This document shows, one piece after another, positions 3,201-60,600 of a stretch of 64,000 nt of DNA. Position numbers and translations under genes: made by a program. The stretch comes from Lingula anatina (taxonomy: Eukaryota > Animalia > Brachiopoda): positions 50,384,788 through 50,448,787 of the forward strand of contig CM120640.1 of the NCBI GenBank assembly GCA_051362555.1, written 5' to 3'. The notes beneath the pieces were generated by a model that did not search any database, was not told the origin of the DNA, and was given only the letters and a program-made list of their open reading frames with translations. Each line of letters opens with the position of its first letter. Position 1 is the first letter of the stretch.

Positions 3201-4359
3201 TCATGGTTAATAATCAAAACCATTTTATTTACTCTGATATATTTGACTGATGGTTTATCCCTAAATATCTCAAAAACAATGGCAATTGAGTTTAAGACTT
3301 ACCAGGCCATTGCAGTTACTAAGCACAACTCTTGACTGTATGGAGTTCAGAACAGAGCCATGGAAGTGACAGTCTTCAGTGTGCCGGTCCCGCCTTTCCA
3401 CCCCCTGTCTATTCCAATATTCCACTGTATAGTCTCCTGACACTAACTTTCTGTTCAAAGTTAAGTTGAAATGAAACTCTGATCCATATGCAGTCAATTT
3501 GTAGTAAATACATTCATCAGAGTGAGTACTGGCACTGGAGAAAGCACTTTGATTGCTGGGAATAGTGTGTAAAGCACTTCGTTTTTTCCTAGTTCTAATT
3601 CCTTTGCTTGTCACATCAAAACTGATTAAGTTTCCTTTGTGGTCCACAAGTTTTGGGATAACCATTTCGTAATGATTTAAATGACGAAATAACTGTTCTG
3701 GAAAATAAATTAATTAAATCACAAATTTGATGAAAAATATAATTTAATTTTTATAAAACCCCTAGGTCTCAATATATCCCATACCTCCAATTAAACTACT
3801 GAAACCTCTTAGTATTAATTGTCACAGTAATGTAAAGCTTAAAAGCCATAATATGTACAAAGATTTAAGTGCAACAAAACACTAACTGTTCCCCTTTTCC
3901 TGTTGGTTTTGAGTGCACATGTGAAACATTATTGGGGTTTTTACTCTGACTGTGTGTGTCGGTATAATTCAGTGGGTGGAGACACATTAAGAAATGAAAT
4001 GTGCATAAAACCATTTTGGTAGAATAAAGTTACTTGGAACATATACGAGCAGACTGACCAAAACAGGCTTAACCAATAATTTCTTTTTATCTTTGAATAT
4101 GGCTGACCAATACCTGAAGATAAAAAGTGGTTCTTAGCCACACCCCACTATTACAATTAGAGCAATGTATTACCTTGTACACCCGTGATGATTTTGAGAA
4201 CTGTCATAAGATTAATATAATCCAGGTACAATATTTAGGTACGTTTATTATCATATCTATTGAAAACATACCTGTCTTCATAGAGATTTGAGAGTAATTG
4301 ACTGGTAGTGCCAGGGCTTGGCTTATAATCCACGTCAACAGTGCGTATACGATTTCCAT
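201..4359 (-). CDS. ADAMTS6: ADAMTS6/10-like metalloprotease, 5' exons (signal peptide and prodomain); continues past the window start
   Basis: Exons 4359-4272 (MEIVYALLTWIISQALA..., signal peptide), 3697-3303 (YEMVIPKLVD...RTRKKRS furin site...YKLTAYGSEFHFNLTLN...LSNCNGL) and 363-201 (HGLF...YYVEPL...HIVY...HCGVK cysteine-switch-like). GT-AG sites are phase-compatible. The sequence closely resembles the remembered N-terminus of vertebrate ADAMTS6; ADAMTS6 versus 10 cannot be resolved. Confidence 0.88.
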
Positions 4360-20100: not shown

Positions 20101-22243
20101 GCATACAAAGCATATGCACTGCATATACAGTAACTGTAGTAATTATGTATGCATATAATTGTATTGAAAAGTGTTGAGTGAAGCACAAATTTTTGATAAG
20201 TGAGTGTTTTTTATGGCACAAAATGATGCTAAACACACATGTGCAACTATTTTTTTCTCACAACAGCCATTTAGGTTGGTAAAATGACAATTTTCAAAAT
20301 GGCGGACAAAATGCCCTAACAAGAGTTTCAACATCGACAATTAAAGGAACCTATGTTTTTATTATGCCTTTTCTTATGTTTTTAAGGTTGTAAAATATTT
20401 ATTCTTATGCTAACACTGCCATTGTTACATTTTAGTTACCTTGTTGGTTGATAGTTTACTGTCAAGCTTGAAAGAAGAGCCAGATCTCAGTCAGTCAAAT
20501 CGAGGAGTGATAAGATATCTCAAGTTCTGCTGGGTGGGAATTATGAGGAAGGATCAGAGTTATCCTGACCTCAAGCAACCAATGGGGAAATGTCTTTAAA
20601 TTATTAAAAAGAAATGGATGGAATATTTTTGTTCTGCACATAAGAAGTCGGGGAAACAATCACTATCATGCACTGAGACCAGCAAAGAAGCTGCCTCAGA
20701 AATATCCAATGTCTGGATGTCCAACAATATCTTTCCTCTCTTTGAGAACATTTACAACAGAATAACTGCATTGTGCTTATATACGATGAACCTTAAACAC
20801 TATTTGTCACATTTTGATTGAAATCTTTCACTTTTGTGTATCATGACTTTTAACACTTGCACGTCACAGACAGTTAATGCTTCATAAGTTCCCCAAATAT
20901 ATCATAATCCAACATACTTCTGTTGGGATTGTACTTCTCAGAGATTGGCAAAATACTTTTTGGAGATTCAGGCATTGGAGATTTCCTTGGCAACTGCTTT
21001 GCTAGCCTCAGCTTATGATAGGGATGTTTTCCGGCTTCATACATGTATGTAAAATAAAAGTGTATATTCCACCCTTTTGTAATAATTTAGAAACAATTTT
21101 ACTTTATGGTAAGGTTAATTGATTCTTCTAATTTCCATCCAACAGATGTTGTGAAATCTTATCACTCTTCATTCTGATTGATTAAAATGACTGAAGTTGT
21201 TCATTTTCCCCATTATCAAAGATTCTGGCTCTTCACTCTAGCTTGACGGTTAACTGTCAGCTGACATGGTAACTGAACTCACTGTAAAATGTATCAATCT
21301 GAGTATTAACATCATAAATGGATTCTACAACCCCAAAAACATAAGAAAAGACATATGACACACTATAATACCTTTAATTGTTGTTAATGAAGCTTTTGGT
21401 AGGTTGTTTTGGCTGCCATTTTGAAAATAGTCATTTTACTGGCCTTAATAATTGTTTTAGAAAAAAATGATTGTCAGATTTGTGTTCAGCATCAAATTTC
21501 GCCTCAGAAAACATCTGTTATGGAATTTTTTTGAGATTTACCCTACCCTAATATTATTTGGTAAACATGAAAAAAAATTGTATTGCAGTGAAAAATCATC
21601 ATTTACCCAATTAAATAATTTCCTTCCTTCTCTTTCAGGTAGTTTAAACTGTGCATCTTTTATGGCTGGAATCATTGAAGCTGTCTTAAATGGGTGCAAC
21701 TTTGTAAGTGCTACTTGAACCAACTCATCTTTGTAAGATTCTGATCCCCTCCCCCCACCAACACAAAATATATATAGATAGAGAGAGAGAGAGAAATAAG
21801 GAAAAAACAGTAGATATGTCAGTCATGGCAATTCTTTTTATTCAGAAAGAACAAGCTGGTCCTTAATTGGTCATCAAATGACAACTAGTTATCTGTTGGT
21901 TATCAAGTACCCAACAGCAGGTCAAAGCTCAGCTTGTATTATTTTTAGTATAATTAGAATCAATTGAAACTTATCAGCATTATTACACCAAGTGTATGAC
22001 AAAAGCAGGAAAAGGACAGAAAAGTGAATTTTTGCTGAAACAAGAAAATGAATAAAAACCAAGCTTTTTATTTGTTGTTTAAATGGCAATCTTTAAGTTC
22101 ATTTCTTATTATTTTTTAAATTTGTGTATTCCATTTTCTTTCAGCCAGCTAAAGTGACCACCCACTGGCATAAGGGAACGACATTTATGATTAAGTTTGA
22201 TGAATCTGTTATAGCCAGGGACAAAACTGTAGATGGCCGATAA
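11125..22243 (+). CDS. TRAPPC5: Trafficking protein particle complex subunit 5 (TRS31)
   Basis: Seven exons: 11125-11193, 11283-11371, 14539-14665, 17641-17698, 18651-18710, 21639-21703, 22145-22243. Motifs FALLFSEMVQYCQ, LFGKEADKLEHANDD, YIIEKEPL, LNCASFMAGIIEAVL, PAKVTTHWHKGTTFMIKF; TAA at 22241-22243. Confidence 0.96.
15944..16290. mobile_element. Non-autonomous TIR element (MITE) with TTAA TSD, Kolobok-like ends; copy 1
   Basis: TTAA|AGGGATAATAACTC ... GAGTTATTATCCCT|TTAA; a homologous copy lies at 44490-44863. Confidence 0.85.
17699..18650 (+). other. U12-type (minor spliceosome) GT-AG intron, TRAPPC5 intron 4
   Basis: 5' splice site GTATCCTA; branch site TTTTCCTTAAG at ~18630-18640, about 10 nt before the CAG; no polypyrimidine tract between them; splicing restores RT-Y-YIIEKEP. 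Confidence 0.85.
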
Positions 22244-23554: not shown

Positions 23555-26500
23555 CTATCGAATACTTTGCCTCATTAGGGTATTTGTTCCCTTTTTAACA
23601 CTGCTTTTTTCAGCAGTCTTCTTTTTCTTTGCATCCACATCAAAGCACTTCCACAGGCGAAGAGTTTCGTCTGCTGCAGCTGATACAACTGTGCTTCCGT
23701 CAGGTGACATGGATAGATGAAGAACCCGTGCTGTGTGCCCTAAAACATGAAAGAGAAAAGGGGGGTTCATTCATTTAATTCAGTAAATTGCCTCCAGCTA
23801 TTGGTTTATTGTAAATTGAGACAATCTTGGTTTACCTCAATGAGCCTTGTATTTGAGAACCAGACGTACAAGATTTAATCCAAAGAGTAATGGTTGAAAG
23901 AAATCAAAGGCCGAGTGCTGTTTTTTTTTATTTCACTGTGAAGAATAGACAAAACTGAATAACACACTTACGTGTGACACAAAAACTAGAATTATTCTCA
24001 TCTTGTGTTAATACACCAAGACATAACATGGGTTTGTTATTTGATGTTATCAAGGTTACAAAATAATTGACAAAATAATGATCTAATGGCTTGAAACCAT
24101 CATGTACCAAACGTAGCCAAGGTCGGCAAAAACCTACCTGTTAGCTCAGATACTTTTGTCATACTTGGATATTTCCAAATAATAAGTTGATTTTGAGCAA
24201 ACCCATGTCCAGATACAAGCTCCTTGTATTCCTTGGACCAGAGGATAGAGCACACCTAGAGAACAAAAAATATTTTGTTACAAGTTCAATATATATGTCA
24301 AAGGTATACAATACATGATCACAATTCAGACCTCAAAAACAATAAAACCCCTTGAATAAGGGTACGTGGTCAACATTCCCTTCTTAAATACACAGAAAGA
24401 CATGACAGTCTTAGTGACTGGCCAGTCAATTAGATTTAAAAATTTTAATTAGAAATGTTGTAAAACATCGATTCTGAGCTCAGGGACAGGTTAAGCAACA
24501 ATTGGCGAGCAGGATAAATTTGTTTCCCCCAGATACCTTCAAATAACCTCTTTTCAAAGCAAGCTGATTGTGTTTTACTGACATGGTTGGTCTTCCATTA
24601 TAAATTGCTGCAGTTGAGATAACTGTTCATCTCTCATTCTACTGCAGTATTACCATTTAAAAAATTTCAACTGAAGAATTTTAGCAATCCTGGTTTAATT
24701 GTTTCATACCTGTGATTTTGTATCTACACTGCTTAGACAAGCCCCCGTGTTGACATTCCAGAAGCGTATGTGTCTGTCAGCAGTTCCACCTCCACTGGCC
24801 AGCACACTAGGTTGCCATGGGCACCATGCAACAGCCTAGCAGATTTTATAATAATTTCAGTTTTAAAATAATTGTAATACAGCCATGCATATTTTTTCAT
24901 CTTTTTAAAATAAAATGCTCATCTTGAACTTATTTAATTAAAACTATGAAAAATTTACTCATGGCGAAACTTGCAATAATAAAAAATAAATAAAATAAAT
25001 AAAAATAAAATAAAAAAATTAATTTTTTTTTAAAATCATGAACTAAAAATTATGTTCACTCACCTTTACTGCAGCTTGGTGCTGAGAGAATGTCAGGACC
25101 GGTGAAGGCTCAGACTGTCCCATATCTGCCTGCCATATGTTCAACAAGTTATCATTCCCTCCACTTGCCAGGAACCGCCCATCAGGAGACCACTTGAGCC
25201 CACACACCTCCTGGGTGTGTCCTAGGAGAGTGGCAATATGGTGATGGGGGACACGGACATCATGATGATGAATAGCACCACTGCGAGAACCACTTCAATG
25301 GATAAAAAGAATGAGAAACTGAATTAGGCTTTGGCTGAAACTGAAAACTGTATTACTGTAAAACATATTCAAACCTAAAGTGTTTTACATATAATAAAAT
25401 CTGGTTTTCATATTAAAATTTGTTTTTCACTTGCTAGATTTTAAATATATAAGACGTTCTTTTTCATTTACCAAGTTGGATGCAAATTTTATCATCAAAA
25501 GAAATTTGCCATGTATCCTAAATATCAATTTACTGCATACCTTGACAAAATGTATGAATTCCATGATAATGCTCCTACTCTGGCAGCATGACCTGTCATG
25601 TTTCTCACACGTTTCATGTTCTGTACATCCCAAAGCTTGAAGTAGTTAAAGTGTTATTTTTTTATTACTCAATACTTTAAACTTAATCACTCAAAGTGTT
25701 TTTATTATGCAAAACTTAAAAACTTTACTACTCAAATGATCAGTTCTCAACAACTTAAAAGCTCTTTCTTTAACTTCAAAGCCAATTTTAATAATGAATA
25801 ACAGAAGCACTCAACACCAAATAATTAACACAAATTTTTTTTTTTTTTACTTAGGATAAATATTTTTGAACTTTGAACACAGGTGTTGATCTAAAAATGA
25901 CAAGACCTTGGACATATCTCACCTGAACTTCGTTAGAACTATTACCAACTGCCAGGTAGTTCCCTTCCTTGATCCAGGACACAGAAGACACATAGTCCTC
26001 TGGGTTCTCCAGTTCCAGCAACTGCTCTATCTCCCCTGAGCCTGCATTCCATAAGTAGACGTGACCACCCAGGGCAACAGCCAGGTGATTGTTCACAGAC
26101 CAATCTAACAGATTTAGATCTGAAAAAATAAATAACAATAATTAATTAGTTTTTATGGGGTCTCCACATAATGGTAATCTACAAAATATCATGTTATGGG
26201 CACTTACATAGCTATATTTGAAAAACAACTGTTAAATGACTATGGTTCTGATATTACCAGATTTTCCTTTTTACAAAGAGAGGAGAAAAAATTTAACATG
26301 CTCTACTAACAATAGTCATCCAAAATCTCTGGGGCATCCAGTATTCTCTCTGGCACTTGTGGGATATGCCTTGTGGGCTTTTTGCAAGATCCTGGAGTTT
26401 TGTTCTGGCTACTGTACAAAACCTTTAGATTGTTCTGGTATCCTGCAATAAAACAGAGCAATTAGAATTTGAAAGACTCATTCTTCTATCTATGTCAAAA

Positions 26501-27820
26501 AAAAAAAAAAAAAATGACTGCATCAAACTACTTTGAGCCTTAATTCGTAAGAGAACAAAACTGCATTACTAGTATTCAGATGATTCTTTACACATCAGTT
26601 ACTCAAGTTGGGCTATTTTCATTGCACGAGCAATAGGCCTGTTTACTATGTCACACCCAATGTAAGAGGCTTTATGGAAGCTTAGCATCCAGACAATGTG
26701 CTTGTAACCCAAGAGACAAAGCCTGCAATATGATTGGGGATTAAAAATGAAAAATTAACATAGGGTATATAAAAAGCTAATTTACTGTTATATTTCTAAA
26801 AGAAAACTTCAAAAGAGCCATCTCATGAAATGTAAAAATTACTATCAAAATGCACAACCATAACCATCACTTTCAAAGGGGATGTTCATAATAAATGTAT
26901 TTAAAACTGGAAGGGACTTTATACTCACCCTCAGGGGCTTGAGGTGCTTTATTTTTGTAGGCAATTATTTTAGCATTTGCTGCATCACCATTTAGATTTT
27001 CATTCATGGCCCTCTGGTACTCTCTTTTGGATGGACTTAACATCTCATCCTCCACTGATTTTTCTGTCATTAGTTTGTAATGGCCTACATCAAACTGTGT
27101 AGCACCTCTATTTGGTATGAACCGATCACCTCCACTTGGTGTTTTGGGTGTTTTGCTGCCTCTGCTGGGTGTCTTATTTTTACCTTAGAGAAATAAAAAT
27201 GTGTAACAGTTTATTAGTCTTAAAACAACAAATTTATTTGATGATCCAAAGTTGGAGTTGCCAACATTTAGAATTTCAAATAAGTGACAAACTGTTTCAA
27301 AGTACAAAAGACTGAAAATGCTGAAGAGGGTTGAAATATGGGATCCATACATATCTTGGGTTTCACTGGAAATAAAAGACTCATAAACTTATGTCAGAAA
27401 ATAAGATCGAGTTTCCCTGCATTATCTTGGGCATTCAGCAACTGAACCTTGATAAAAGCCTGACAAAATTTAATTAAGACTGTAAATATTTTCTGTCATG
27501 GTAAACAATATGAAATTAACACTTCGTGGTGGCATGTATGTCCTGATCATACCTGGTGTTTTAGTAAGCCCTGGAGTCTTATTGGTCCCCGATGGGGTTT
27601 TGCTGCCCATGAGCAAACTGTTACTCAGAGATTTGTTCAGTGGCTTCATGGGCGTCTTGCAGATGCTCCCATTCATAGATACATTGCTGATTGAGCAGTT
27701 CATTGACGCACCCAGAGCTTCACTCTGTTTTCTCTGCCATCTCATTGGTGGTCCCTTTGTGATAGGAGCATCCATTTTCAGCAAGTTGTTCATATCACTT
27801 TCAAACTTGAAATGAGACAT
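23555..27820 (-). CDS. CDC20: Cell division cycle 20 (fizzy), APC/C co-activator
   Basis: Coding exons 27820-27553, 27183-26929, 26442-26311, 26119-25923, 25635-25541, 25292-25064, 24835-24710, 24255-24138, 23739-23555. C-box [29 protein letters not shown]40 repeats, C-terminal IR tail. A non-coding first exon ends at 27985. Confidence 0.97.
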
Positions 27821-28084
27821 CTGTAAGACAGCAAATACTGATACAGTGCGTTTCTTGTTATATGCCCAGGCAAGTGCAAGAACAACAGCCATTTTTAAAT
27901 ACCCTCAATAAGCAAATATAGGAGACACGGGCCATATCGTGTATACATAAACAAAAAGCTTTGTAACAGGTGAAAAAATCTTACCTTTCACATACAGTGT
28001 TCAATAATTTGTAATGCTTTTCTTTACTTGCAAGATTCTATCCAAGCTCAGGCAAGACAACGTTCGATATTATCTCGTTTTATC

Positions 28085-28219
28085 ATCGGCAAATTAATAT
28101 AGTTCTCTCTTGGTTTTCAAGTTTACCGCTTTTGATTGGATAGGCGGTGATCTACTCGAACGCTGATTGGATAATTTCGAAAAACAAACCTGTTCTCGTG
28201 CATTCTCGCGTTATCCAAT
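28085..28219. promoter_or_regulatory. Bidirectional CDC20/GPX7 promoter with CCAAT boxes and a CDE-CHR-like element
   Basis: ATTGG at 28135-28139 and 28166-28170 (31 bp apart), CCAAT at ~28215; minus strand AGCGG-TAAA-CTTGAA at 28130-28116. Confidence 0.65.
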
Positions 28220-31200
28220 ATGGAAACCTCCATGTCGCCAAAAATCTGTCCAAAAAATATTTTAAATGTTGTGTTGTTTTCATTCTTTTTTGTCAATATT
28301 TTTAATGAAATTTTATGTGGACCAGCAACAATAGACCCATTAAAAGTTAAAAAGAAACCAGGGTATAGACCGTCTACCGGAGGTTTACAGCCTGGAGAAA
28401 TAGTTTATGAAGATGTAACACCAACCACGGATGAACCAGAAAAAGACTTCTACATGTTTTCAGTAACTGACATAAAAGGAAAAACCGTTTCACTAGAAGA
28501 ATACAGAGGCATGGTACGTGATACAAAAAACTGTCAAAATCAGTTACAATCTGGGGGTGCAGCTAGAATTTTTTTCAAGACAAAAAACTGCAGCCCTTAT
28601 CAATTTGTAGACAAATTACAAATAAAAAATAAGTCAGAACTACTTTCGTGTTAAATACTCTTAATCACAATATTGATGCATACAACAAAATGACTGCCCC
28701 AATTTTAGTGCATTTAATTAGCCTTCTAGTAAATTTAGTACCTCAGCACCTGAACCACCTTATATGGACAAAAGCCAAGAATTTCGAAATGTGGGTACTT
28801 TTGTATTACGGGGGGGGGGGGGATTACTCCATGCACTTATTAGAGGCAAGATTAACGGTCCTCCTAAAATGGGCAATGCAACACTGAATTGAGTCATATT
28901 GTTAATGAAATTCTACTGGTATCCAGGGACTCTAAGTGAAAGGCAACCTACCTATTCAACATAATTTGAAGTTGAAGTGTTGTTACCTTATCTCCTTTTT
29001 TGTTATTGATATTAATATATTTTTAAAATTTCCGTTTCTTTTGCTTATATTAGGTTACCTTGGTAGTAAATGTGGCAAGTGAATGTGGATATACTGACAG
29101 TCATTACAAAGCACTTGTAAAGCTTCAAAATACACTAGCACCCAGTGGGAAGTTTACAGTATTAGCATTCCCTTGCAATCAGTTTGGGGCTCAGGAACCT
29201 AAGGTAGGTAGAGAATATATGCAGTCTCAATTAACAATAGCATCTATATTTGAATACATCATTGCTGAGAGTGAATATTGAACATGGCTATGTGAAGTTA
29301 TATATATATCTTGATTTATATTGTGTATGTCTTCAATATCATAATTGCACATTTCATTGAAGAAAATGATAGTGTTATTGTAGAAGATATAATGAATTAT
29401 GATGCATCTACAGTAATTATATCTCTGCATGTAACATCAAATATCCAGATCAGATGAATCCATTTTTGTATACAGACACTACTATTAATATTATTATTTT
29501 TTTAATTTTAGGATGAACCATCAATAGAAAAATTTGCAAAAGAAAAATATGGCGTGAATTTCCCTATGTTTTCAAAAATAAATGTTGTTGAAAAGGACAT
29601 TCCTGAGGCTTGGAAATTTTTAGAGGGTATGTGCCAGCAAAAAACAGAAGGCATTGATGCAAGCTGTTTTTCATTGTATTATTGTACCACCAGCGTTAGC
29701 GCTGGCGGTACACATGGTTTTAGTCCCGTCCGGATCGTTCCGCCGGACAGCTACCGTTACCGCTTCTCCTCCTAGACGGTAAGGGCCCCCGTACCCATCT
29801 CTTGGATTTAGGTCACCTATAATCTCAACTCGTTCCACGTAAAATTTGGGCTTTGTCGGTTTTGGGGTCTAGGTGTGGCACTCATTGCAATGCACCCTTG
29901 TCTAAAAATGGCAAAATTAAATGCTAATTATCTACCCTACGGAAGGAATTATGGGAAAAATTTCTACAGACGGCTTTCCAAAAGTCATATGTGTAGATTT
30001 CAAATATGCCCTTGGATTTGACCTTTGACCTTTATTTCAAGGTCAAACGAGCCAAAATTTTCAAAAAAATTAATTTTTTTACGAAAAAAAAATTATTTGC
30101 ATTGTTATTCAGACACCACACAGACTTAACCAATAATATTATTGGAAAGTGTTACCCTTCAGGTCATCTTTCATCTGCGTGAATTTGGGGTCAATCGGTG
30201 CATTTTCACGGGAGTAGCGGCCATAAGATACCGAAACTGAAAACTGTCTCTAATTCGGGAACCGTTAATGCTAGAGACCCATTCTTTTTTGCATTTTATA
30301 GAGCATGTAAAGCCCAACACTAGAAGTGGTCTCGGTTTTTTTGTATTCCATACGGTTTTCGAGTTACACTGTATCAAAAAGTACATATTGGTGGTGAAAG
30401 CAAAATGTGCAGTACGGTAATGGATAATAAATTTTGAACTCCGGAAAAATAAAACATAAGGCTTGGCAAAGCAGACAACTTGTGGTCAAAAATGACATTA
30501 TTTCATCAAATTTGAACATCTGGAACTTCAGACCACCTCCCATTTCAAGAATTTTGACCAAAATGACCTTTTCTTTATTTTAATTAATTTTTTCTGTTGG
30601 AAATTTATGGCACATTATGGTGACTCCAAAATTATAACATTTAGTCCCTTATATCTCCAAAACTGGCAGAGATAGGTCCATAGTTACTATTGAAGTTGAA
30701 TAGGAAGTCATATACTGGCAATCTTAATGTGACCTTAAAATTGACCTTTGACCTACTTTTCACCATGAACTGAACTTTGCAAATTTTGGTTCCCTTTTAT
30801 CTCCAAAACTGGCAGAGATAGGTCCATAGTTACTATTGAACTTGAATAGGAAGTCATATACTGGCAATCTAAATGTGACCTTAAAATTGACCTTTGACCT
30901 ACTTTTCACCATGAACTGAACTTTGCAAATTTTGCCTCCCTTTTATCTCCAAAACTGGCAGAGATAGGTCCATAGTTACTATTGAAGTTGAATAGGAAGT
31001 CATATACTGGCAATCTAAATGTGACCTTAAAATTGACCTTTGACCTACTTTTCACCATGAACTGAACTTTGCAAATTTTGGTTCCCTTTTATCTCCAAAG
31101 TTACGCTGTATCAAAAAGTACATATTGGTGGTGAAAGCAAAATGTGCAGTACGGTAATGTATAATAAATTTTGAACTCCGGAAAAATAAAACATAAGGCT

Positions 31201-32537
31201 TGGCAAAGCAGACAAGTTGTGGTCAAAAATGACATTATTTCATCAAATTTGAACATCTGGAACTTCAGAGCACCTCCCATTTCAAGAATTTTGCCCAAAA
31301 TGCCCTTTTCTTTATTTTAATTAATTTCTTCTGTAGGAAATTTATGGCACATTATGGTAACTCCAAAATTATAACATTTAGTCCCTTATATCTCCAAAAC
31401 TGGCAGAGATAGGTCCATAGTTACTATTGAAGTTGAATAGGAAGTCATATATTGGCAATCTTACTGTGACCTTGAAATTGACCTTTGACCTACTTTTCAC
31501 CATGAACTGAACTTTGCAAATTTTGGTTCCCTTTTATCTCCAAAACTGGCAGAGATAGGTCCATAGTTACTATTGAACTTGAATAGGAAGTCATATATTG
31601 GCAATCTAAATGTGACCTTGAAATTGACCTTTGACCTACTTTTCACCATGAACTGAACTTTGCAAATTTTGGTTCCCTTTTATCTCCAAAACTGGCAGAG
31701 ATAGGTCCATAGTTACTATTGAAGTTGAATATGAAGTCATATACTGGCAATCTAAATGTGACCTTGAAATTGACCTTTGACTTACTTTTCACCATGAACT
31801 GAACTTTGCAAATTTTGCTTCCCTTTTATCTCCAAAACTGGCAGAGATAGGTCCATAGTTACTATTGAAGTTGAATAGGAAGTCATATACTGGCAATTTA
31901 CTGTGACCTTGAAATTGACTTTTGACCTACCTTACGATGAACTTAACTTTGATTGTACCATTTTTAGGCATATATATTTTTTGCACATTTTGAAAATTCT
32001 TGTTGATTGCATTTTTACAGCTTGTCAAGCAGAAGACTGGTGGCTGTGACCCTTATTTTGTGTATGTGGGGGTCTATACGAATGCGCTTGCTCCAGCTGG
32101 TGGTACAATATTCGGAGGCGGTATCGCCTCTCTGATCCTCTAGTTTCTATAAATTTATATGACATATTTTCCCTCTTCTAATTATTAAATAGTGTTTTAT
32201 CTTTCAAATGAAAAAATAACTATCTGGCTGATTAAATGGGCAAAACACTTTTTATCAGTTATTTTCCCCCCACAAAGTGTATTTCATATGACTGATAAGA
32301 GAATAATTTTTATTATTATTCAATTAAGTTTAAATATTATGGCAATATTTTTCAGATTTTTCAAGACTGGTTCCAAATTGGAACTTCTGGAAGTATCTAA
32401 TAAATCCCAGTGGTCATGTTATAGCCACATGGGGTCCCTGGATACCAGTGGAGGATGTGATTGAACAGATAACAGAGGCTGTACATGCAGCAGCTGATGA
32501 CTTGGTTGTATCTGACACAATACACGAGGAACTGTGA
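28220..32537 (+). CDS. GPX7: Cys-type ER glutathione peroxidase (GPX7/8 family)
   Basis: Exons 28220-28513, 29054-29203, 29512-29626, 32356-32537. Hydrophobic N-terminus, VVNVASECGYT (TGT Cys at the active site), LAFPCNQFGAQEP, PNWNFWKYL, C-terminal HEEL ER-retrieval signal. Confidence 0.93.
29680..32144 (+). mobile_element. Helentron-associated non-autonomous element (HINE/DINE-like) carrying tandem repeats, in GPX7 intron 3
   Basis: Subterminal inverted repeat TATTGTACCACCAGC (29680-29694 / 32096-32110), 5' palindrome, 3' hairpin GAGGCG-GTAT-CGCCTC (32115-32130) followed by CTAGTT; internal 146-bp arrays. Confidence 0.8.
30363..31950. repeat. 146-bp tandem repeat arrays inside a 737-bp higher-order duplication
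   Basis: TCTCCAAAACTGGCAGAGATAGG recurs at 30654, 30800, 30946, then 31391, 31537, 31683, 31829; block 30363-31099 is repeated from 31100. Confidence 0.95.
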
Positions 32538-33120
32538 TGGAGAACTGCTTTAACCACACCTCTGATCCAAATGTTGTAATTTTTTATTCCTTGGGCCTTG
32601 TTATATCTACTTGCAGATCTCGCAGATGCTGTAGTATCAATGCATATGTTACATTTAATATTTCTGAAATTATGTGGGTGTACTAGATCAATTTTATTCA
32701 GTCAAGATATGTTGATAATCAGTGCCAGGGTGCAGTTCCTTTGAAGGTCAAATATACTACATACTGCATGTCTTCCTATGCAGTTTTTTTTTTTTTTAGA
32801 TCCATTGCTTTTTCAGATAACATTTTCTGAAAATATGGAATGTCGTTTGAATTGTGGAATCCAATATGTGATAAACAATACAATTGTTCTGTTAAACTTA
32901 ATTTTCATCAGTTTAAAAATGCCGGTAATTATTTCATGCTAAGAGTTCAAGTAGTACCGTTTAATAAATGTTTGCTCATCTCGAACAACAAGAACTAGCA
33001 TAAAAAAGCACAAGGACAGTTTTTATTTTTCTTTTTTATTGATACTTTTGTACTTTTGGTCATATAAAAACTGAATGCTTAAATCTCTGAGTCTTTTAGT
33101 TATTTCCAATTGTATTCATC

Positions 33121-33177
33121 AGTCGGTAATCCAAGGTCACCCACCATGATGGTTTAGGGCACCTCTTCATGGAGACT
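33121..33177 (-). promoter_or_regulatory. SECIS element 2 of selenoprotein P
   Basis: Minus strand AGTC-tcc-ATGA-A-GAGGTGCCC-T-AA-ACCA-TCA-TGGT-GGGTGACCTT-G-GA-ttacc-GACT: AUGA/GA quartet, helix II, apical AA and mini-stem, helix I AGTC/GACT. Confidence 0.85.
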
Positions 33178-33429
33178 TCGAAGAAAATAGATAACAGTAT
33201 GTCCCCAAAGATAAAGCAGCTTAAGGAAAGACAACATGCCACTTAGGCAATCTAACAGCATTTATCAGAGCATAAGTCAATGATTAACTAAAGATATTTA
33301 CCTTTGATAAAATTTGCTTCTGATCAACATGTAAATCAAATGTAGTTCAGTATATCTGACTAACATACAATCTTGAATATATATGTTCCCTAACATTTAA
33401 GGACCAGAAAACCTTGCTACAAACCACAG

Positions 33430-33492
33430 TTCAAGCATCTGGAGTACAGGGACCTCTCGGTTTTACCCATACTCCTTCATTAATAACTTGGT
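33430..33492 (-). promoter_or_regulatory. SECIS element 1 of selenoprotein P (type II)
   Basis: Minus strand CAAGT-tatta-ATGA-A-GGAGTATGGG-T-AAA-ACC-GAGA-GGT-C-CCTGTACTCC-A-GA-T-GCTTG: 10-bp helix II, apical AAA, GNRA-capped mini-stem, helix I CAAGT/GCTTG. Confidence 0.92.
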
Positions 33493-33673
33493 TCAATGCA
33501 GCAGTGGATTCCATGGTCACTTAGATGTTAGTCGATTTACTTGAAGGACCTGAAGTGTTTTAAGTGTTGAGTGATATTTGATCTCCATTTGTTTAATTTA
33601 GAATCCCATCCCAAAAAGATGCTCCAAGTAAATCATTTTGCTTTGTGTTCACGTTTGAGTCTTTTCTAATACA

Positions 33674-36600
33674 TTACTGTCACTGTCATGGACCAGGTTG
33701 TCATTGTCAGCTAGTCATTTTGTCAGAAAGAAAACTCAGTTGTCACTGCCAAGATTTAGTAGGGTTGGCAGCTGACAAGGCCTGTCATTTTCATGGTCCA
33801 GAGTGTCACTGTCAGTTGGAATTAACAGCTGAAGATTTCAGTTGTCACCGTCAAGTATTAGACTGGCACTCTCATTTTGGCACACCTTCAGGAAAAATCT
33901 GTGCCTCTCATTGTCAAGTGGGGCTAGAAGCAGCCAGCATGGTTTGTCATTGTCATGACCAACATTGTCAATGTCAACTGGGTTTTCTTTCAGAAGATGA
34001 ATCTTGCTGCCATTGTCAAGTGGAGCTGTTAGAAGCTAGCATGGTGTGTCACTGTCATGATCCAGATTGTCACAGTCAACCAGGTTTTCCTTCAGAAGAT
34101 GTGTCTTGCTGTCATTGTCAAGTGGGGGTGGTATTGGCCAGTGTTGTGTGTCATTGTCATGACCCAGATTGTCACTGTCAACTAGGTTTTCCCTCAGAAA
34201 ATGAACCTTTTTGTCACTGTCAATTGGAGCTGGTAGTGCTCTGCATATTGTGTCACTGTCATGGCTCTGTGTGTCATTGTCAGCTAGACTTTCCGTCTTC
34301 AGAAGAATGTTGCTGTCAATGTCAGATGGGATTAGAATCGACAGGAGAGGCCTGTCACAATCAAGAACCAGACTGTCAGTGTCAGCTAGACTTCTTGGTG
34401 GAAGATGTACTTAGTTGTCATTGTCATGAAGTGGGAATGGTGTTAGGAGGCACTGTTTGACACTGTCAAGTTGGATCTTTCTGCTGTCATGTTGCATATG
34501 TTGCTATAGAGTTTTGTCAGTGACAATCTACTGTCTTTTCTCTACAGTGTGAAATCAGGGCTTTACACTTTCATGGACTAACTTCTGAGGTGGGATCATG
34601 ATATCATTTACAAGATGTGGGGACGTTCAGTAGTTCGGAGTTACTCTGACATTGGCATGACATGTGTTTTTTATTAGTGTTGCCAAAATTTGGTAAATTT
34701 CTGCAGTGGCAGAGAGAACTTTCATCAATAGAAACACCTGCTTCTGATCACAAACATTTTTGAGACTTATACTTGTATCAGGTCATGTTTGTTTGTCATT
34801 GTCAGGTGGTGGTGGATCTGTTTATGTCATTTGGTCACTGTCAAGTAGTACAAAGACTGCAGGTATTTTGACTTGGTGAAGAGTCTTTGAGGTCATGAGT
34901 TGTTGTCTGTCATGTGAAGTTAGATGGTTCTTGTGTGTCAGACATGTGATGTGACATTTTCTTGGATACAGTTAATAACTGACATCAAATGGCATCAGTC
35001 CCATTGTTTTTTAATTGATCGCAATGGGATGTATTTACACCTGCTCACTTATTTTCTACTTGTTTATTGTCATCCTGGTTCTCCTGTTCCATCTGCTGCT
35101 CATCAGACATCACTTCGATTTGGTTTGAGTCCTCTTCTTCTAATGGACCCTTCCTGATAGTTTTGTTGTCCCTGTGCTTCTTTGATATGGGACCAGTTGT
35201 CGTCATGGAGGTAAACAGCAATTCTTCTTGTGCCAATTCGTTGGTTTCAAACTTGAAAAAAAAGTTTTGCAAACTTCACTTCAGAGCATCCTAGTAAACA
35301 GTACTTTTGTAATACAAGTACTTTATTCTGGATGAGTTACTGTTACATATCTGTTTTCCTTTAAACTTTCGACCAAATATGATTATTTTCGGCTTTGCTC
35401 AGCATATTTGTTTGAAATGTGTTGATAGAAGTTGAATACATGCCTACAGTTCGCTGCCTGGAAAGGTCTAACAAAAGACCACTTAAACTTTGGAACTTTA
35501 GTTCTTTATGGCCTCGTTCTGGGCGGTTGTAACAAATATAATAACTAAAAAAGCACTCAGAGCGCAGACCACCGCCATGGAAGTTTAGTTCCCATTCTTG
35601 ATTAATGAATCAATTCACGGATCACCAACAGAATCGAACTGATTTAAATTTCATTTCTGAGCTATCTTGGAAATTTTCTCAAAATCCGCTCATAACTTTT
35701 TTCAGTTGGGTTGTTAACAAAAAAAAAAAAAAAAAAAAAGAAAAAGAAAAAAAATTATTCCATAACAGAAGTAATAATAATTTCTTTGAGGAGGTCGACA
35801 CTGTTTGCAATTTTTATGAAATTCTAGAATTGAGCAGACAGTGCAATCATTAGCGGTTGAGGAAATATTTCATCAACGGGAAGTGCACCCAGGCGGCTGT
35901 CCTCTCAACTTAAAACAAAACAGGTTCTAATGAAGCCGATCTGAACTTGGCATTTGTTTGAAATTAAAACGGGTTTAATGAAATTAACAAAATGTACTTC
36001 AAACATTTTTGAAAATAAATTATCATTTGATATTTCGCAAAACATTTACTTTACCTCATCTCCTGACCCCAGATCATCGACATTATGCTTTTCCTCTTCT
36101 TGGGTGGGGCAAACGCCACAAGGCTCGTCATAGTAAGTGGATAGAATGGCTGCTTCCGTATACGGATATGCCAACCAGCTTTTAGGAAATGGTATGAAAA
36201 ATGCTAGGCGGCCGCATCTAAAAGAATAATATTGCACTTCTCGTTAGTATTTTTTATTCAGAAATTTATTACGACGAGAAGAAAATGTTTTTCACAGACC
36301 GCTGTTAACATAAGATTCGAATGTCTGTCTATCCTTCATTAGTGTTTTTGTATGTTCTTTTATTTCGTACAAATATCACTGTGTACCTGTCATAAACGAA
36401 AATATCATCTTTCCCTCCTTCTAGTGTATACCAGATGTCATTTTTGTGCGTCGATCTGTATACCGGAAAGCGAACTCTTCGTTGAAGTGTGCCGTGCATC
36501 AGTTGAGCGTGCCATTTTTTGGAGTTAATTGCCAAAAAAGAAATTTCGTCTAAGCCATGTCTAAGGAACTTTTGTCGCAGGTATTCCAAACTGAAATGTA

Positions 36601-37422
36601 ATGTTGCTAATGATAAAATGGTATCTGGCTGAGCAGAAAAAGTACATTAATCAATGTTTTCTTGGAAAAGGGTTTATGGAGAAATGTATGCCTTGTTTGA
36701 GGCAGCTGTCTCTGGAAGATTTATTACATGCTTGTGTCTGGAACGATATGTTTCGTCTGAAATTTGGTTATTATTTCAGATAAATGCCCTCAATACGGCC
36801 TCAATATTACGATGATTGTCGTTGTTGATTTGGCGCAAACATTCCTACTTACTACCGCCCCTGCCTGAGACAAAGTTTTCAACTGGCCTGAAGAAGTGAG
36901 ACGACGGTAACGTTTCCTCGGTGATTTTCCATCGGACTCTCCCCGTCCACGAACCACGATGGTGGTGGTGCACATTTCACAGCGGCTCCGGCATTTCCCG
37001 CTAGGCACAGGATGGTCGCTATTAGCAGACCTGTCCCAGCCGCCGCGGCCCTGTAAATGTTTCTGATATTTTGTTTTGTTGCGCTTGTTTTATCAGATGT
37101 TTTATGACGCACAGCATTTAAACATTTGTTAGAATTTACATTTATTAAAACTAAGATCTAATAAACGGATATTAGATCTTAGATTAAAACCAATGCTATA
37201 AACTGAAAAAGTCAATGTTATTCTCAATCAAACTATATATTTGAAGATGTTATTTTAACCCCGAAAAGCACACGGACTGCCACATCGTAATATTTTTTAA
37301 AGCTAGATGGGCGATTTGATTTCAAAGCCGTGCTCGAAAAGTCTTTACAGAGAACATATCACAAGTTTTATAAATTATATCTGGCTTTGGACTCACCTGC
37401 CGATTTTTACTTGAACACCCAG
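33674..37422 (-). CDS. SELENOP: Selenoprotein P with about 58-59 selenocysteine (UGA) codons, ~720-735 aa
   Basis: Exons 37422(?)-37397, 37050-36853, 36590-36387, 36217-36055 and 35290 (or 35251)-33674. N-domain VTVVSLLQAS-U-KLC (TGA at 36881-36879), GGKDDIFVYDRCGRL, YPYTEAAI, CGVC. The last exon is open apart from TGA until TAA at 33676-33674. Two SECIS elements lie downstream. The start codon and the last acceptor are uncertain. Confidence 0.95.
33677..34430 (-). repeat. Coding tandem repeat of ~102 nt (~34 aa, three U-x-U motifs per unit) in SELENOP
   Basis: TCAGAA(G/A)A recurs on the plus strand at ~33990, 34092, 34194, 34299; example unit UQUQQDTSSEGKPG-ULUQSGS-UQUHTMLASNSST. Confidence 0.88.
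35543..35795 (-). mobile_element. Degenerate short HINE/Helentron-like element in SELENOP intron 4
   Basis: Minus strand begins ACCTCCTCAAAG...TTATT, contains a simple-repeat tract, and ends GGCGGTGGTCT-GCGCTCTGAGTGC (hairpin)-TTTTTTAGTT. Confidence 0.5.
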
Positions 37423-37499
37423 AATATGTAGATGTTTTTGTGATGCTCAATAAAGACCTTGCTTCACTGTTCCTTGTATATGTGTAATATCAAACTGCG

Positions 37500-37600
37500 T
37501 ATGAAGCTCGACCCTTGATCTACTCAGCTTATATATGCTTGTGTGACCTGGTTTGTTTACTCCGATAATTGCCTGACTTTGATACTGAGTAAATCAGCAG
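37500..37600 (-). promoter_or_regulatory. SELENOP core promoter: TATA box with upstream Forkhead-type and nuclear-receptor half sites
   Basis: TATATAAG at 37535-37528, GTAAACAA at 37560-37553, AGGTCA at 37549-37544; exon 1 donor CAG|GTGAGT at 37397/37396. Confidence 0.55.
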
Positions 37601-38299
37601 TTCGAGGGCACACCACTGAGTTCTTACGTGCATGACCCTGAAGTACTGAAGTAACTTTGAGGAAAATTATATAAAACGACCAAAGATCATTTACTCCACT
37701 GACTATGGGAAAAGCCTTTTAACTTGTACATTTCTAAAAAAAAGTGTAAAGAGCAGTCATCGGAGTCATTCACAGAAAAGATTTTCACGTGTGAAAAGTC
37801 TATGTACAATGTACGGTATGCACATTGACATCCCACACAGATAAATATGATTCCAAGATACCGAAACTAGGAGCATCTTTGGACAATACGTTTACTGATG
37901 AAATTATGATTTACGCATACCTAAACTTATTTTGTGCTTAATTATACTACACGTAGGGCCTAATCAAAATTCAAAGCGAAAATATTTTGTAAAATGGGCT
38001 AAATGGCTAGCTTACTCTGGAGGGGTGGAACCTGGAGCGAAAGTCAAAGTAGTTTGTAGCATAGGTTTGACCAAGGAGTTGTTGGTTAAACTTAACGCTG
38101 GCGTTTTAAAAAATATTATTCATTTATTTTCCGCAAACGCTTTTCCAAATTGAATAATAATGTTTTCATTACATTTTTCATTTCTTTTTATTCTCATATG
38201 TCCGAAATGTAATCTACTAGTAGTAGCTGTCTATAAAAAAAAGCACAATGCCGCCCTGCACTCAGATTTAAAAAAACTCCAATTTCATCGTGCCCTCTA

Positions 38300-38875
38300 C
38301 CAGAGTTTTGTCTTCTCAAATCGGCCGATTGTGCTTCGAAAGGCTCAACAAATCGGTGCATCAACAAGTTTAGCACGTACTTTGTAATTTTTCATAGGCA
38401 CATTTAAGAAAAGAAAGCCAAGACATATATGTACTCGATTCAAATATTACTTTAATTGTACTGTGTGTAAAGGAGACAAAATGCCCCGTTGTTAACGTTT
38501 GGATGTTGCCCAATTGAAAATGTAATCGTAATCTGAATATAGAGGTTACCGGGTACGTGTAGTTACTGTAATGGGAAGAAAACCATCTTAGGGTTATTTC
38601 AAAGTGCCGAATTGCGAAGTTGAGTTGGATATTAATTTTTTGTTTTGAATACCAAGTGTCCATTTCACAGTTCACAAAAACTAATGGCAGAACTTTTCAG
38701 ACTTAAATTTGTAAGAGGCAGTGGTGCATACCAGGTAACTCTGAAAACAATTTAATTTGAAGTTCAGTGTGTTTATACATGTTTTTAATTTTTTATCGTG
38801 TTTTTGTATTACAACTTTCCAAATTATAACATTAATAAAGGTCTTACTATATTAATAGAGAAGACAAAACTCTGG
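38300..38875. mobile_element. MITE with TA TSD (Tc1/mariner-type) between the SELENOP and YIPF3 5' ends
   Basis: TA|CCAGAGTTTTGTCTTCTC ... GAGAAGACAAAACTCTGG|TA; perfect 18-bp TIRs. Confidence 0.75.
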
Positions 38876-39160
38876 TAGAGGAATATAGGCCTACGTTATG
38901 ACAAACGAGCCCTCACATACACTGTAGTCATAGGGGTGAAGGAGAAAGAAAGTAGATATTCCCTTCTTCTGAATTAATGAATGATGGAGGCTGATTGAAA
39001 TACCGAAAGAAAGACTAGAATTTGTGAGGAAACGCAAATAATATCAAGTGCCATAGAGTGCTATAACTATGTGATGTAGACTAGTATGTGATGCCTGCTT
39101 ATGCTTTCGGATTGGGCTCCTCTTGGACTCCCATGACACCTGTCATTGAAAGAAATCATC

Positions 39161-43248
<4,088 letters not shown>

Positions 43249-56414: not shown

Positions 56415-57606
56415 GTCCTTGGTACTGGACTTTAATTTTCATTTATTTTGTCTTTAATGAAGTGTATATTGTTGTCTAGTGTTATTTGTCTTTGTTTCTG
56501 TGTTGGTGGATGCATGAAGCAGTTGTTTACAGACACCTCCCCTCATTCCTGTCCTCAGCTATCTTCACCTTTTGATTCCTGGATGATAAAAATACCTTCT
56601 ACTGGATTGCAGAATGTACACTGAACTCACCCAAGCTTGAATTTTGTTTTATCCAAGTAGCTGCAAAAAAGTAGCCAAATCAAAGCTTTAAACCAAAACA
56701 ATGAAAGATTGGGAATTTAGAATGCTTTTCTTTTTCTATAACCAATATATCTGTTCCCAAGTTATGTTTTTAAGTTTGAGTTTATGAATACCTGTAGGTA
56801 ATGTTGAAAGGTGGGGTCAGGTTGTTGTTCTCCGGGTACTGTGCATTCCTTTGCAATGACGGATGACAGTCACAGATAGTGCCTGGGGGGTCAGAGAGAA
56901 GTTTGCCAAGTATACATGGTCTCATCTATTTCACATGTTTGGGATTTTTTGGGCCTAGTTTGTTGGTTTTTGACAGCATATATCTTATTCAATAGATTTT
57001 CATTGGTGACAGTCTTAGGTCTGTGCTCTAAGTGAAAATATTTGATGCTTGGGATAGAAAACTTGAAAATAAAGTACTCACAGTGTCCTTTGCTTAAGTT
57101 GTTCGGCTCGTGGATCAATTGAGATATTGAAGGTGTTTTATTTCTTTGTGAACATTAACAGTGGGAACATTGTAAAATACTTTAAGAATGTATAGCCTTT
57201 ATACTATGAAATGGTACAGGGGGATTTAAATTCCAAAGATGCAGGTATAAATATTTTGGGAATTAAATAAAAATGCTGTTCCTAATTGTGAAAAATGATT
57301 TAAAATTTTTTTGTTTGATTTTTTTCTTTTTTTTTTTTTTTTTCTATAAAGCAGATCAGGAGGGATGGGGATATTTAGTGAAGCACGTAGTTCCAGGTCA
57401 CTGATTCTATTGTGTATGCTTCATTTTTGTAAAACGATCTGGATATGTATACTCAGGAATTCATGATTTACATGATCACCTGCTTAGATGTTGAATATAT
57501 AGCTCCACAATAAGTGCAGATCAAGATGCACTGTAATAATCATTTTTTTTATTATTTCAGATTTCATTATAAGTACTGGTAGTATTCTATACCACTAACT
57601 TTGACC

Positions 57607-60600
57607 ATGTCGGTCAATGAAGAAATCCAAGCCAGCACAGACAGCTTCTGGGAGATAGGGCAGTATAAGAGGACAGTAAAGAGAATTGAGGATGGTCACA
57701 AATTGTGCTCAGACTTAATGGCCTTGATCAAAGAAAGGAGTGAAATTGAGGATGAATACTCCAAAAAACTGAGGCACTGGACCAAAAAGTGGAATAAATT
57801 GTTGGACAGTGGTAAGTGTGCTTTTGGCAGCAGTTTGGTGTAAGTAGCTGAGTTTGTTTGCAAATTGAACTAATGGCCAGGATCAGGTGCTCATTGCCTT
57901 AACTGCAGTAAGTAGACTTGTTTGCCTTGACCACGCATTTAACTCACCTGTGCTGCTGCACGTTTAACATGTAAAAGGCTACAGGCAATGCATCACTAGC
58001 CATCTTGTCTGTATGTTCATATGACAGTGACCAGATTTATAAGTAAAATCTTGTTTGGAGATATGAATAGTACTTGGGGATATACTTTCACCTTTAGCAT
58101 TTTATGTCAGACATAGTGGATGCCTTCTGGACAGGTCACTGTCAGCAACCTACTAGTAGGTCTATTGTTATCTGAAGTTTACAAAATTGCCAGCTATACA
58201 AAGTTCCATTATTTATTGCATAATGAAGGGGGAATAGTATACTTGTCTGTGTGCAAATTAATAGCACAGAGGGAGTAGCATGATATGTCCCTCCTTTTTA
58301 TGGCTTGCTGAATTTGGCAGGTGTTATTACCATTATGGTTGACAGTTGAGATCCTATTTCATACTCCAGCATTTTGTAACAGTATTGATGGACCTGGATA
58401 GTTTTTAACCCAATACCCGAAAACAGCAATATTTTTTTAACTGGACATGTGGAGAAGAAGATATACTTACTAGTGGTGTGTGTCTGCATGGGTTGTTATG
58501 CATGCTCACTTGTTAAAGAGAAAAGGAGAAGTTCCACAGATATGCTTACATACATTTAACATGACAAATAGGCTGTGTTCTTAAATGAGCCTACATAAGG
58601 GTACAGGCATGCAACAAGATAAAGGGCATGCTCTTTGGCCACTAGTGATATATTGTTTCCTATTGTACAAGGAACCTCGATCACTTAATTTTCAATAGTC
58701 ATGTTCAATTGTTGCACAGAAGGAACTTTCTGCCACGATGAAGAAAATATTTTTCTTTTTAAACTCATCGTAGCTATAAACAAATGCATGATCATCTGCA
58801 TTTACACCTTCTTCAAGTCTAGCCTGTACAACATTAATTACAATACAATCATTATCATTCATTTATCTTTTTGAGGAACAATGCGTAAATCTTAATGTAG
58901 TTGGAAGTTAAGAGTGCTGCAATTACATCATGTCCTGAAAGTAGTGTATAACTATTTAGTAAGTTATACATTTTATTGGACAAACATGTATAGGGGCATA
59001 AGTTTATTAAGGGAATGCTGTCCTACAGTGGTAAGTGGACTTGTATTATTAATTAGTTAATGACACTACCTGAAATCAAGCATCATTTTTGCCCACATGG
59101 TAAAATAACAAGCGAAAAAATTATCTGTATTTGGAAGTCACTGAACTTATATTCTGTTTGAGGACATGCATAATTTATAGTATGGTTTATAATCTTTGCT
59201 GCATATTTCAGGTCCAGAGTATGGCACTACACAAGCAGCCTGGCGGAGTGCTCTCACAGAGGCCGACAGAGTGGCAGATTTACACACAAACGTCAGAGAC
59301 AAACTGGTCAATGATGTTAACCCAAAAATCAAAAATTGGCAGAAAGAACATTTCCATAAAACTTTGACAGGGATGAAGGAAGTTAAAGAAATGGAGGAAC
59401 ATTTCAGAAAAGTAAGCATGAGGATTTTAGATAAGAAAGTAAACATGATATCAAAATATTTGCATTTAGGGTTAGGTTGCAAAAGGAAGCAGGCTAAGTG
59501 ACTACCAGTTTCCTGATATTGATTTGTGAGTGTGGTGATGAGGGTACTACAGATTGCAGACTATGAATACAAATGTCCTTTTGTAAAATGTACTGTGAGT
59601 GTTACTGATAAAATTGCTCTCCTTTCATAGATAGATTTTCTTGTTGAAATCAATGGATGTTTATGGTTACAAAATCAGATAAAGTTCAGTTTCTTGTGAG
59701 ACTACTAAAGATAAAATTTTCAGCTTGATATTGATCAGTTACTTGATTGTTGAAACATTTTTGTTTTAGGCTCAAAAACCATGGGCTAAGAGGCTAGATA
59801 AAGTTGTGAAGGCCAAGAAAGATTTCCATACAGCCTGCAGGAATGAAAAGTCCACCAGTATACAGGCTAACAATGCTTTAGCAGACTCTTCCATGTCTGA
59901 AGATCAGGTAATCTTTGGCAGCTCTTATCTCCAAACAAGTGAGCCAAAAACAAAAATAGGATTCATTGTTGAGATGACTTTTGCTTTGTAAAAACATAAA
60001 TGTTAAAAAGACAGATCATATAAAATGTAAAGCTTTTACAACATTTCAAAATGTATATACAGTGTTACGTAAATAAGCATTTAGGGTTTTATGTTTTGAT
60101 TGTAGTGTATACTATTATACTACATCTGTTTTATTTTGTGGGTTTGTTGTTTATAGATTATAACTATATCATGCCAACTTAAATAGAATGGTGGCTTTAG
60201 TGCAGTAGGATGCATCACGGTCTTTTTCATATCAAGAGGGATAAATAATTCCCCCTCCTAAAACTAAGTGTATATGTACTGGTTATGCCTTAAGCCCATG
60301 TTCTGCTATGATCCTTTCAAAGAATAACAGTTATTATAAGACACTCTCATCTTAAAGCACATTGTATTTGTTGCCTTTATATGTCCTTATCATGCTTTGT
60401 CACTTTAGAAGTGTGGAGAACATTAAATATAAGTATTTGATAGGGTATTAGCAGAATACCACTTATAAGTATTTAACATCATTTGCATTTAATCCAATAT
60501 CTTATTTTTGTAAGTAGGGTTTTACTACATGTAGATTGCTCAGACCAAAATTAATTTTTTTTCGAGATTGTCTTTTTTTTTCTTTTGGCCTAAGGAATAG

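Follow-up and report, generated by a model that had tools for sequence, protein, structure and literature searches.

A SELENOP gene of the brachiopod Lingula anatina with 58 in-frame UGA codons and a likely non-AUG start

Introduction

Close counterparts of the gene that we analyze here, a SELENOP gene on the minus strand of a 64,000-nucleotide stretch of the brachiopod Lingula anatina genome (assembly GCA_051362555.1, contig CM120640.1, positions 50,384,788 to 50,448,787; hereafter the window, to which all coordinates refer), are the SELENOP genes of vertebrates. Vertebrate SELENOP1/SelPa (Pfam PF04592; 10 selenocysteine (Sec) residues in human) has five exons, of which exons 2-4 encode the N-terminal domain and exon 5 is large, and the Lingula gene has the same layout. 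In vertebrates, exon 5 holds both the Sec-rich region and the 3′ untranslated region (UTR), as it does here, and the N-terminal domain has a thioredoxin fold with one Sec in a UxxC motif, a motif that likewise occurs once here (PMC2397514). Vertebrate SELENOP further resembles the Lingula gene in having the first UGA (UGA1) at codon 59-60 and two Sec insertion sequence (SECIS) elements, which drive Sec insertion with UGA1 as the bottleneck; it also has a stem-loop just past the start, where a candidate hairpin is predicted in Lingula (PMC5727441). The protein is taken up by low-density lipoprotein (LDL)-receptor-family proteins via its C-terminal domain (PMC8193087). The Lingula gene differs from its vertebrate counterparts in its 58 Sec codons, the lack of a His-rich tract, a tail of 34-codon repeats without a Pfam match, and a predicted signal peptide that no AUG precedes, with the likely start at the end of exon 1.

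A second group of relatives comprises the Sec-expanded SELENOPs of aquatic animals, with 28 Sec in a sea urchin (PMC2397514), up to 132 UGA codons in bivalves (Baclaocos et al., 2019, as cited in PMC13134290), and 162 and 139 in lamprey SELENOP2 (PMC13134290). These share with the Lingula gene a modular C-terminal expansion in which the only stop-type codons are UGA, as well as two SECIS elements (PMC13134290; PMC2397514). The Lingula gene has fewer UGAs than these records and belongs to the brachiopod lineage, and it has UxxC where the lamprey proteins have CxxU; a non-AUG start is not mentioned in the accessible text on this group. For the start codon, a parallel is SBP2 of Caenorhabditis, which begins at an AUU (Ile) codon after AAA and shows homology upstream of its first AUG (PMC4114682). 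SBP2 differs in being a decoding factor rather than a selenoprotein, and in that its start is backed by cross-species conservation and experiment (PMC4114682).

Results

We found a spliced and expressed five-exon SELENOP gene that, with good confidence in the combined reading, carries 58 Sec-coding UGA codons and starts at a non-AUG codon, probably AUC 37404. RNA reads from four of nine listed sequencing runs (X1, X4, X7, and X8) were aligned to 32200-40200. In three of these (X4, X7, and X8), reads back four GT-AG introns (37396-37051, 36852-36591, 36386-36218, and 36054-35252, minus strand) with 36-102 reads per junction per run, and X4, a stranded library, puts the RNA on the minus strand. 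Exon 1 (37397-37484), where read starts pile up at 37473-37484 about 50 nt downstream of a putative TATA-like box (37529-37535, a pattern match), is joined to position 37050 by 38, 47, and 56 reads in X4, X7, and X8, respectively. Exon 2 (36853-37050) encodes the predicted signal peptide (to ~36984), the start of the SelP_N domain, and the UxxC motif; exons 3 (36387-36590) and 4 (36055-36217), both delimited by junction reads, encode the remainder of the domain, which ends in exon 4. An alternative exon-2 donor two codons earlier was rejected, as reads use 36853. Exon 5 opens with an acidic, Gln/Asn-rich linker (35048-35251), continues into the Sec-rich tail (33677-35047), and closes its frame with a TAA (33674-33676, from the sequence); an AATAAA (33035-33040) lies near the end of the minus-strand read depth. 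The original prediction, made from the sequence alone, had confined the gene to 33674-36881; with exon 1 reaching ~37484 and SECIS hairpins reaching 33115, it extends past both ends. That prediction included neither the two hairpins nor the fact that no AUG precedes the signal peptide.

Expression of the gene is strongly sample-dependent: with comparable amounts of sequence read, depth across 33000-37484 is ~150 in X4 but does not exceed ~2 in X1, which has almost no reads on the gene. The reads of X7 and X8 carry many fixed differences, most being 90-99% alike to the window, compared with mostly at least 99% for X1 and X4 under the same species label; X7 and X8 thus represent a diverged population or a cryptic species. 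A short dispersed repeat in intron 1 (37151-37182) attracts reads from elsewhere, and a spliced transcript (39194-40200, plus strand) runs divergently from SELENOP, starting ~1.7 kb upstream of it.

The open frame agrees closely with what had been predicted. From 35290 to 33674, the minus strand holds 538 codons without TAA or TAG (about 540 had been claimed), and 58 of these are TGA, one of which is intronic. The prediction had allowed for 58-59 UGAs, the 59th depending on an acceptor at 35290. Reads instead join exon 4 (36055) to 35251 (102, 58, and 36 reads in X4, X7, and X8), which confirms the splicing of the last exon, rejects the upstream acceptor, and places the TGA at 35276-35278 in the intron, so the count is 58 and not 59. 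As predicted, these comprise the catalytic TGA (UGA1, 36879-36881, UxxC in the form U-K-L-C within QAS-U-KLC) and 57 in the tail, from 35047 to 33682. They make up 58 of ~716 residues, or 8.1%, in line with the predicted ~8%. Exon 5 alone has 525 open codons, a length that none of 3000 composition-keeping shuffles reached (1000 each at k=2, 3, and 4; best 469). Its frame contains 57 TGA and no TAA or TAG; the other two frames contain 8 and 17 TGA, and 10 and 22 TAA or TAG.

Family membership, also proposed earlier, held up. Pfam SelP_N (PF04592) matches exon 2 (45.5 bits, E 7.9e-12), exon 3 (50.4 bits, E 2.4e-13), and exon 4 (34.4 bits, E 1.9e-8), all above the cut-off of 23.2, while exon 5 has no Pfam match. 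Together with the single N-terminal UxxC Sec, the five-exon layout, the many-UGA tail free of other stops, and two SECIS-shaped hairpins in the 3′ UTR, the second of them weaker, these features indicate that this is a true multi-Sec member of the SELENOP family without the vertebrate His-rich tract. The region replacing that tract is acidic (24 Asp/Glu in 88 residues), as had been noted. With HMMER, 105 homologue matches were obtained, the best of them at 58-64% over parts of the domain, with no close orthologue among them. A word-index search, a weak test with queries this short, returned 7 candidates for exon 3 (none at E<=0.001) and 544 for exon 2 (none at E<=0.1), and a sequence search of the PDB gave chance matches only, with no solved relative of exon 3 at E<0.1. 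Two tRNA-Sec candidates and 34 predicted selenoproteins have been listed for Lingula (PMC5330540, Table 3), and the present gene is probably among the 34.

Both SECIS-shaped hairpins lie downstream of the TAA on the minus strand. SECIS 1 (33427-33489) has AUGA at 33480, AAA at 33464, an apical mini-stem, and a fold z-score of -3.0. The SECIS 2 candidate (33115-33178; AUGA 33170, AAA 33155), recognized by eye and motif, shares the AUGA, AAA, and GA anatomy of SECIS 1, and its fold (z -1.0) is not significant alone. Between the two, 18 molecules in X4 begin at 33204 on the minus strand, and depth beyond that point drops from ~85 to 30; no read pile at 33204 is listed in X7 or X8. The pile may mark a 3′ end that yields mRNA without SECIS 2, or a library effect. 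Part of human SELENOP mRNA has been reported to lack SECIS 2 (PMC5133445).

We then considered where translation begins. An ATG scan found no ATG in exon 1 and no in-frame ATG in intron 1, and an AUG formed across the exon 1-2 junction was rejected too, since none is in frame and the junction is fixed by reads. The first two AUGs of the mRNA (within 36973-36994) are out of frame: that at 36994 runs 5 codons to a UGA and that at 36975 runs 50 codons. Both precede the first in-frame AUG (36930-36932), which lies past the predicted signal peptide, a hydrophobic stretch with a 9-residue mean of up to 3.1, and inside the Pfam match, which begins 17 residues upstream of it. Upstream, the start is bounded by an in-frame TGA at 37449 and, in X7 and X8, by a 1-nt deletion at 37440. 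The in-frame near-cognate codons below this bound include CUG 37422 (37420-37422; A at -3, G at +4), AUC 37404 (37402-37404; AAA before and G after, a strong context), and CUG 37028. CUG is usually a stronger start than AUC, and a downstream hairpin aids non-AUG starts. Here, a GC-rich stem-loop (36985-37047; -39 kcal/mol; 63% GC against 35% in the UTR) is predicted over the signal-peptide codons, beginning ~9 nt past the AUC in the mRNA. Of the 105 homologue matches, 12 have both a Met start and the motif; in 10 of these, the initiator Met and the conserved Trp are 26-38 apart, a distance that would be 35 from the AUC and 41 from CUG 37422. The AUC is kept in the 13-read loose-end consensus of the diverged X8 and in the X4 reads; as X4 shows no G>C change of the kind that an AUG allele would need and X8 keeps the AUC, it is not an assembly slip. 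Counted from the AUC, UGA1 is codon 60; it is codon 59 in mouse SELENOP (PMC5727441). The predicted hairpin past the AUC occupies a position like that of the vertebrate initiation stem loop, which roughly doubles initiation in vitro (PMC5727441).

The main alternative is a multi-Sec SELENOP with an ordinary AUG, either the in-frame 36932 or one in a first exon used in other tissues. Starting at 36932 would give a protein without a signal peptide, kept in the cell as a selenium store. That codon has A at -6, C at -3, and G at +4, and it lies 17 codons before UGA1; moreover, our reads come from four runs, one nearly signal-free, with 24 of 78 loose ends listed. Against this, an AUG 36932 start would lose the conserved C-x-PPP-x-W segment matched by Pfam, would leave the intact hydrophobic leader unexplained, and would have to follow two out-of-frame AUGs. 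As for another first exon, no junction of exon 2 other than that with exon 1 is listed in three runs, and 37540-38340 has no reads. We therefore regard an AUG start as unlikely and, judging from the sequence, a non-AUG start as quite likely. Given a non-AUG start, the AUC at 37404 is somewhat favored over all other candidates together; CUG 37422 is a distinctly less likely choice, and CUG 37028 or another codon is improbable. The five-codon frame that begins at the mRNA's first AUG (36979-36994) ends in UGA, and it is possible that the SECIS elements could recode this UGA, which would provide selenium-sensitive control.

The tail provides the evidence on whether the remaining UGAs are translated. 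It contains 22 UxU pairs, 15 of them UQU, which resemble the CQC motif that forms the ApoER2 contact in rodent SELENOP. Six full copies of a 102-bp (34-codon) repeat, each with six UGA positions, occupy 33815-34426, and shorter copies come after them; of the 36 UGA positions, 34 are TGA (the exceptions are TGG and TGC). Tandem duplication of this unit of 102 bp and six UGAs appears to have built up the tail. X7 and X8 are a few percent off the window sequence, with 175 and 166 differing places listed. Of the 21 indels, 12 are listed; all four of these in coding sequence are multiples of three (3 or 9 nt), compared with one of eight outside (Fisher p 0.01). Among the 40 substitutions listed of 213, five are coding, three of them silent and two conservative, and no TGA is touched. 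These indels and substitutions, together with the TGAs of the repeats, suggest that selection maintains a frame in which UGA is a sense codon, and the 58 in-frame UGAs are likely read as Sec.

A single-Sec protein of the SELENOP2/SelPb kind, ending at UGA2 (35047) and followed by a TGACA-rich 3′ UTR repeat, would account for the lack of a Pfam match in exon 5 and the repetitive tail, and single-Sec SELENOP forms exist (PMC2397514). It would not account for 456 codons after UGA2 without TAA or TAG, against 10 and 22 such stops in the other frames, for the frame-keeping indels, for the TGAs kept across repeats, or for the placement of two SECIS elements after the TAA. Homologues read with UGA as Trp (W) also have similar tails, with 47-50 W each (P0020 has 50 W and 14 WxW). 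We thus consider it very unlikely, and a SELENOP with a translated Sec tail almost certain. Among the homologues, P0103 (597 aa) is SELENOP-like, but no UxxC segment can be seen in it. Its long repeat tail looks helical and contains 47 W, which would make P0103 an unusual multi-Sec form if each W represents a UGA.

Still less probable is loss of the AUG from a gene that is decaying or already null, as the missing AUG at the expected place and the near-absence of X1 reads might suggest: X4 depth is ~150, the AUC, introns, and frame are the same in reads diverged by a few percent, and the listed coding changes are silent or conservative only. Finally, the minus frame could be the shadow of a plus-strand, Cys/His-rich, metallothionein-like gene (33597-34460; 287 codons, 173 from ATG), in a frame that runs 565 codons without TAA or TAG with a long stop-free part, but we rejected this as having next to no likelihood, as minus-strand RNA has an X4 depth of ~97-150 against 0.7-5 for the other orientation, the plus-strand frame has no Pfam match, and its openness follows from the scarcity of Tyr codons in the tail, which has only 4, with neither T nor C before any of them. 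This antisense frame could be miscalled as a metal-binding protein.

The neighborhood of the gene was also annotated. A glutathione peroxidase gene (28175-32530, plus strand; PF00255, active-site Cys, GPx7/8-like) converges on SELENOP, with the 3′ UTRs of the two meeting near 33000-33300. A near-identical local duplication lies in its region (30364-30579 and 31101-31316, minus strand, ~740 bp apart). The peroxidase gene is divergent from CDC20 (23555-27900, minus strand), an 86-residue exon of which is 100% identical to a Lingula anatina protein (next match 69%); in vertebrates, CDC20B and GPX8 are neighbors. Further away are a reprolysin-propeptide (ADAM/ADAMTS-like) exon (3270-3713, minus strand), a TRAPP component (21461-21718, plus strand), and an F-BAR (PACSIN-like) protein (57583-63062, plus strand).

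Discussion

Our findings support a translated, multi-Sec SELENOP in Lingula whose start is likely not AUG. It is important to point out several observations that weigh against this account. The signal peptide was predicted from hydropathy and depends on a non-AUG start, and no close orthologue was found among the 105 matches to show a conserved non-AUG start codon. G>C changes are listed at six places in X7 and five in X8, of which only two are shown. The stem-loop past the AUC (z -1.5, with 22 of 300 shuffles as stable) is not significant by itself. SECIS 1 scores 30 bits with Rfam RF00031 (E 0.0082), under the gathering score of 35 bits, and the SECIS 2 candidate is not reported by Rfam at E<=1. 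A His-rich heparin-binding tract was not found (at most 3 His in any 20-residue window, as the prediction of a middle region that is not His-rich implied); such a tract is typical of vertebrate SELENOP, and we did not take it as defining the metazoan family. Identity among the six repeats is 96% at UGA columns and 56% elsewhere, a difference that is inflated and partly circular, since these columns were picked by their UGA majority. The variant evidence covers 40 substitutions (of 213), 12 indels (of 21), and 24 loose ends (of 78); the unlisted remainder could include the loss of a UGA, a frameshift, or a minor first exon with an AUG.

The number of UGAs is unexceptional within its class, and it was overstated as extreme in the original prediction, given that lampreys have 162 and 139 and bivalves as many as 132 (PMC13134290). 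The UGA count alone makes Lingula one more aquatic animal in a known pattern; the novelty lies in its likely non-AUG start. We found no report of a non-AUG-start SELENOP or of a brachiopod SELENOP in a search that lay outside subscription journals and the Baclaocos 2019 survey; the Lingula gene, with its count and start, may already be in Baclaocos et al. (2019).

By analogy with vertebrate SELENOP for Sec insertion, secretion, and uptake, we propose the following sequence of events. The GC-rich stem formed by the signal-peptide codons would slow scanning ribosomes, which would then initiate on the AUC. Ribosomes leaking past it would reach the two out-of-frame AUGs before one in frame, such that output is throttled. 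The two SECIS elements of the 3′ UTR would recruit SBP2 and eEFSec with Sec-tRNA; UGA1 would form the bottleneck, with the 57 tail UGAs then read processively, as in vertebrates. The protein would be secreted into the body fluid, where the thioredoxin-like UxxC domain may act as a redox enzyme and the repeat-built tail may store and carry selenium until uptake by an LDL-receptor-family protein and breakdown. In its strictest form, in which the 58-Sec protein is made only from the AUC, aided by the stem-loop and guarded by the two out-of-frame AUGs, this proposal is tentative, and we judge it rather less probable than its negation.

For annotation, the corrected gene model matters at both ends, which standard annotation would miss; misannotation of such genes is well documented (PMC12822975). 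If our proposal is true, recoding of a start codon and of stop codons would be stacked on one SELENOP mRNA, and the first AUG trap, ending in UGA, could itself sense selenium. Weak initiation would then, we speculate, keep ribosomes far enough apart to pass 58 UGAs without forming a queue, and ration the largest selenium sink of the animal. Whether low initiation supports processive Sec insertion is an open point in selenoprotein decoding that is testable here, and the missing AUG would make this gene a natural test case for the purpose of the SELENOP initiation stem loop.

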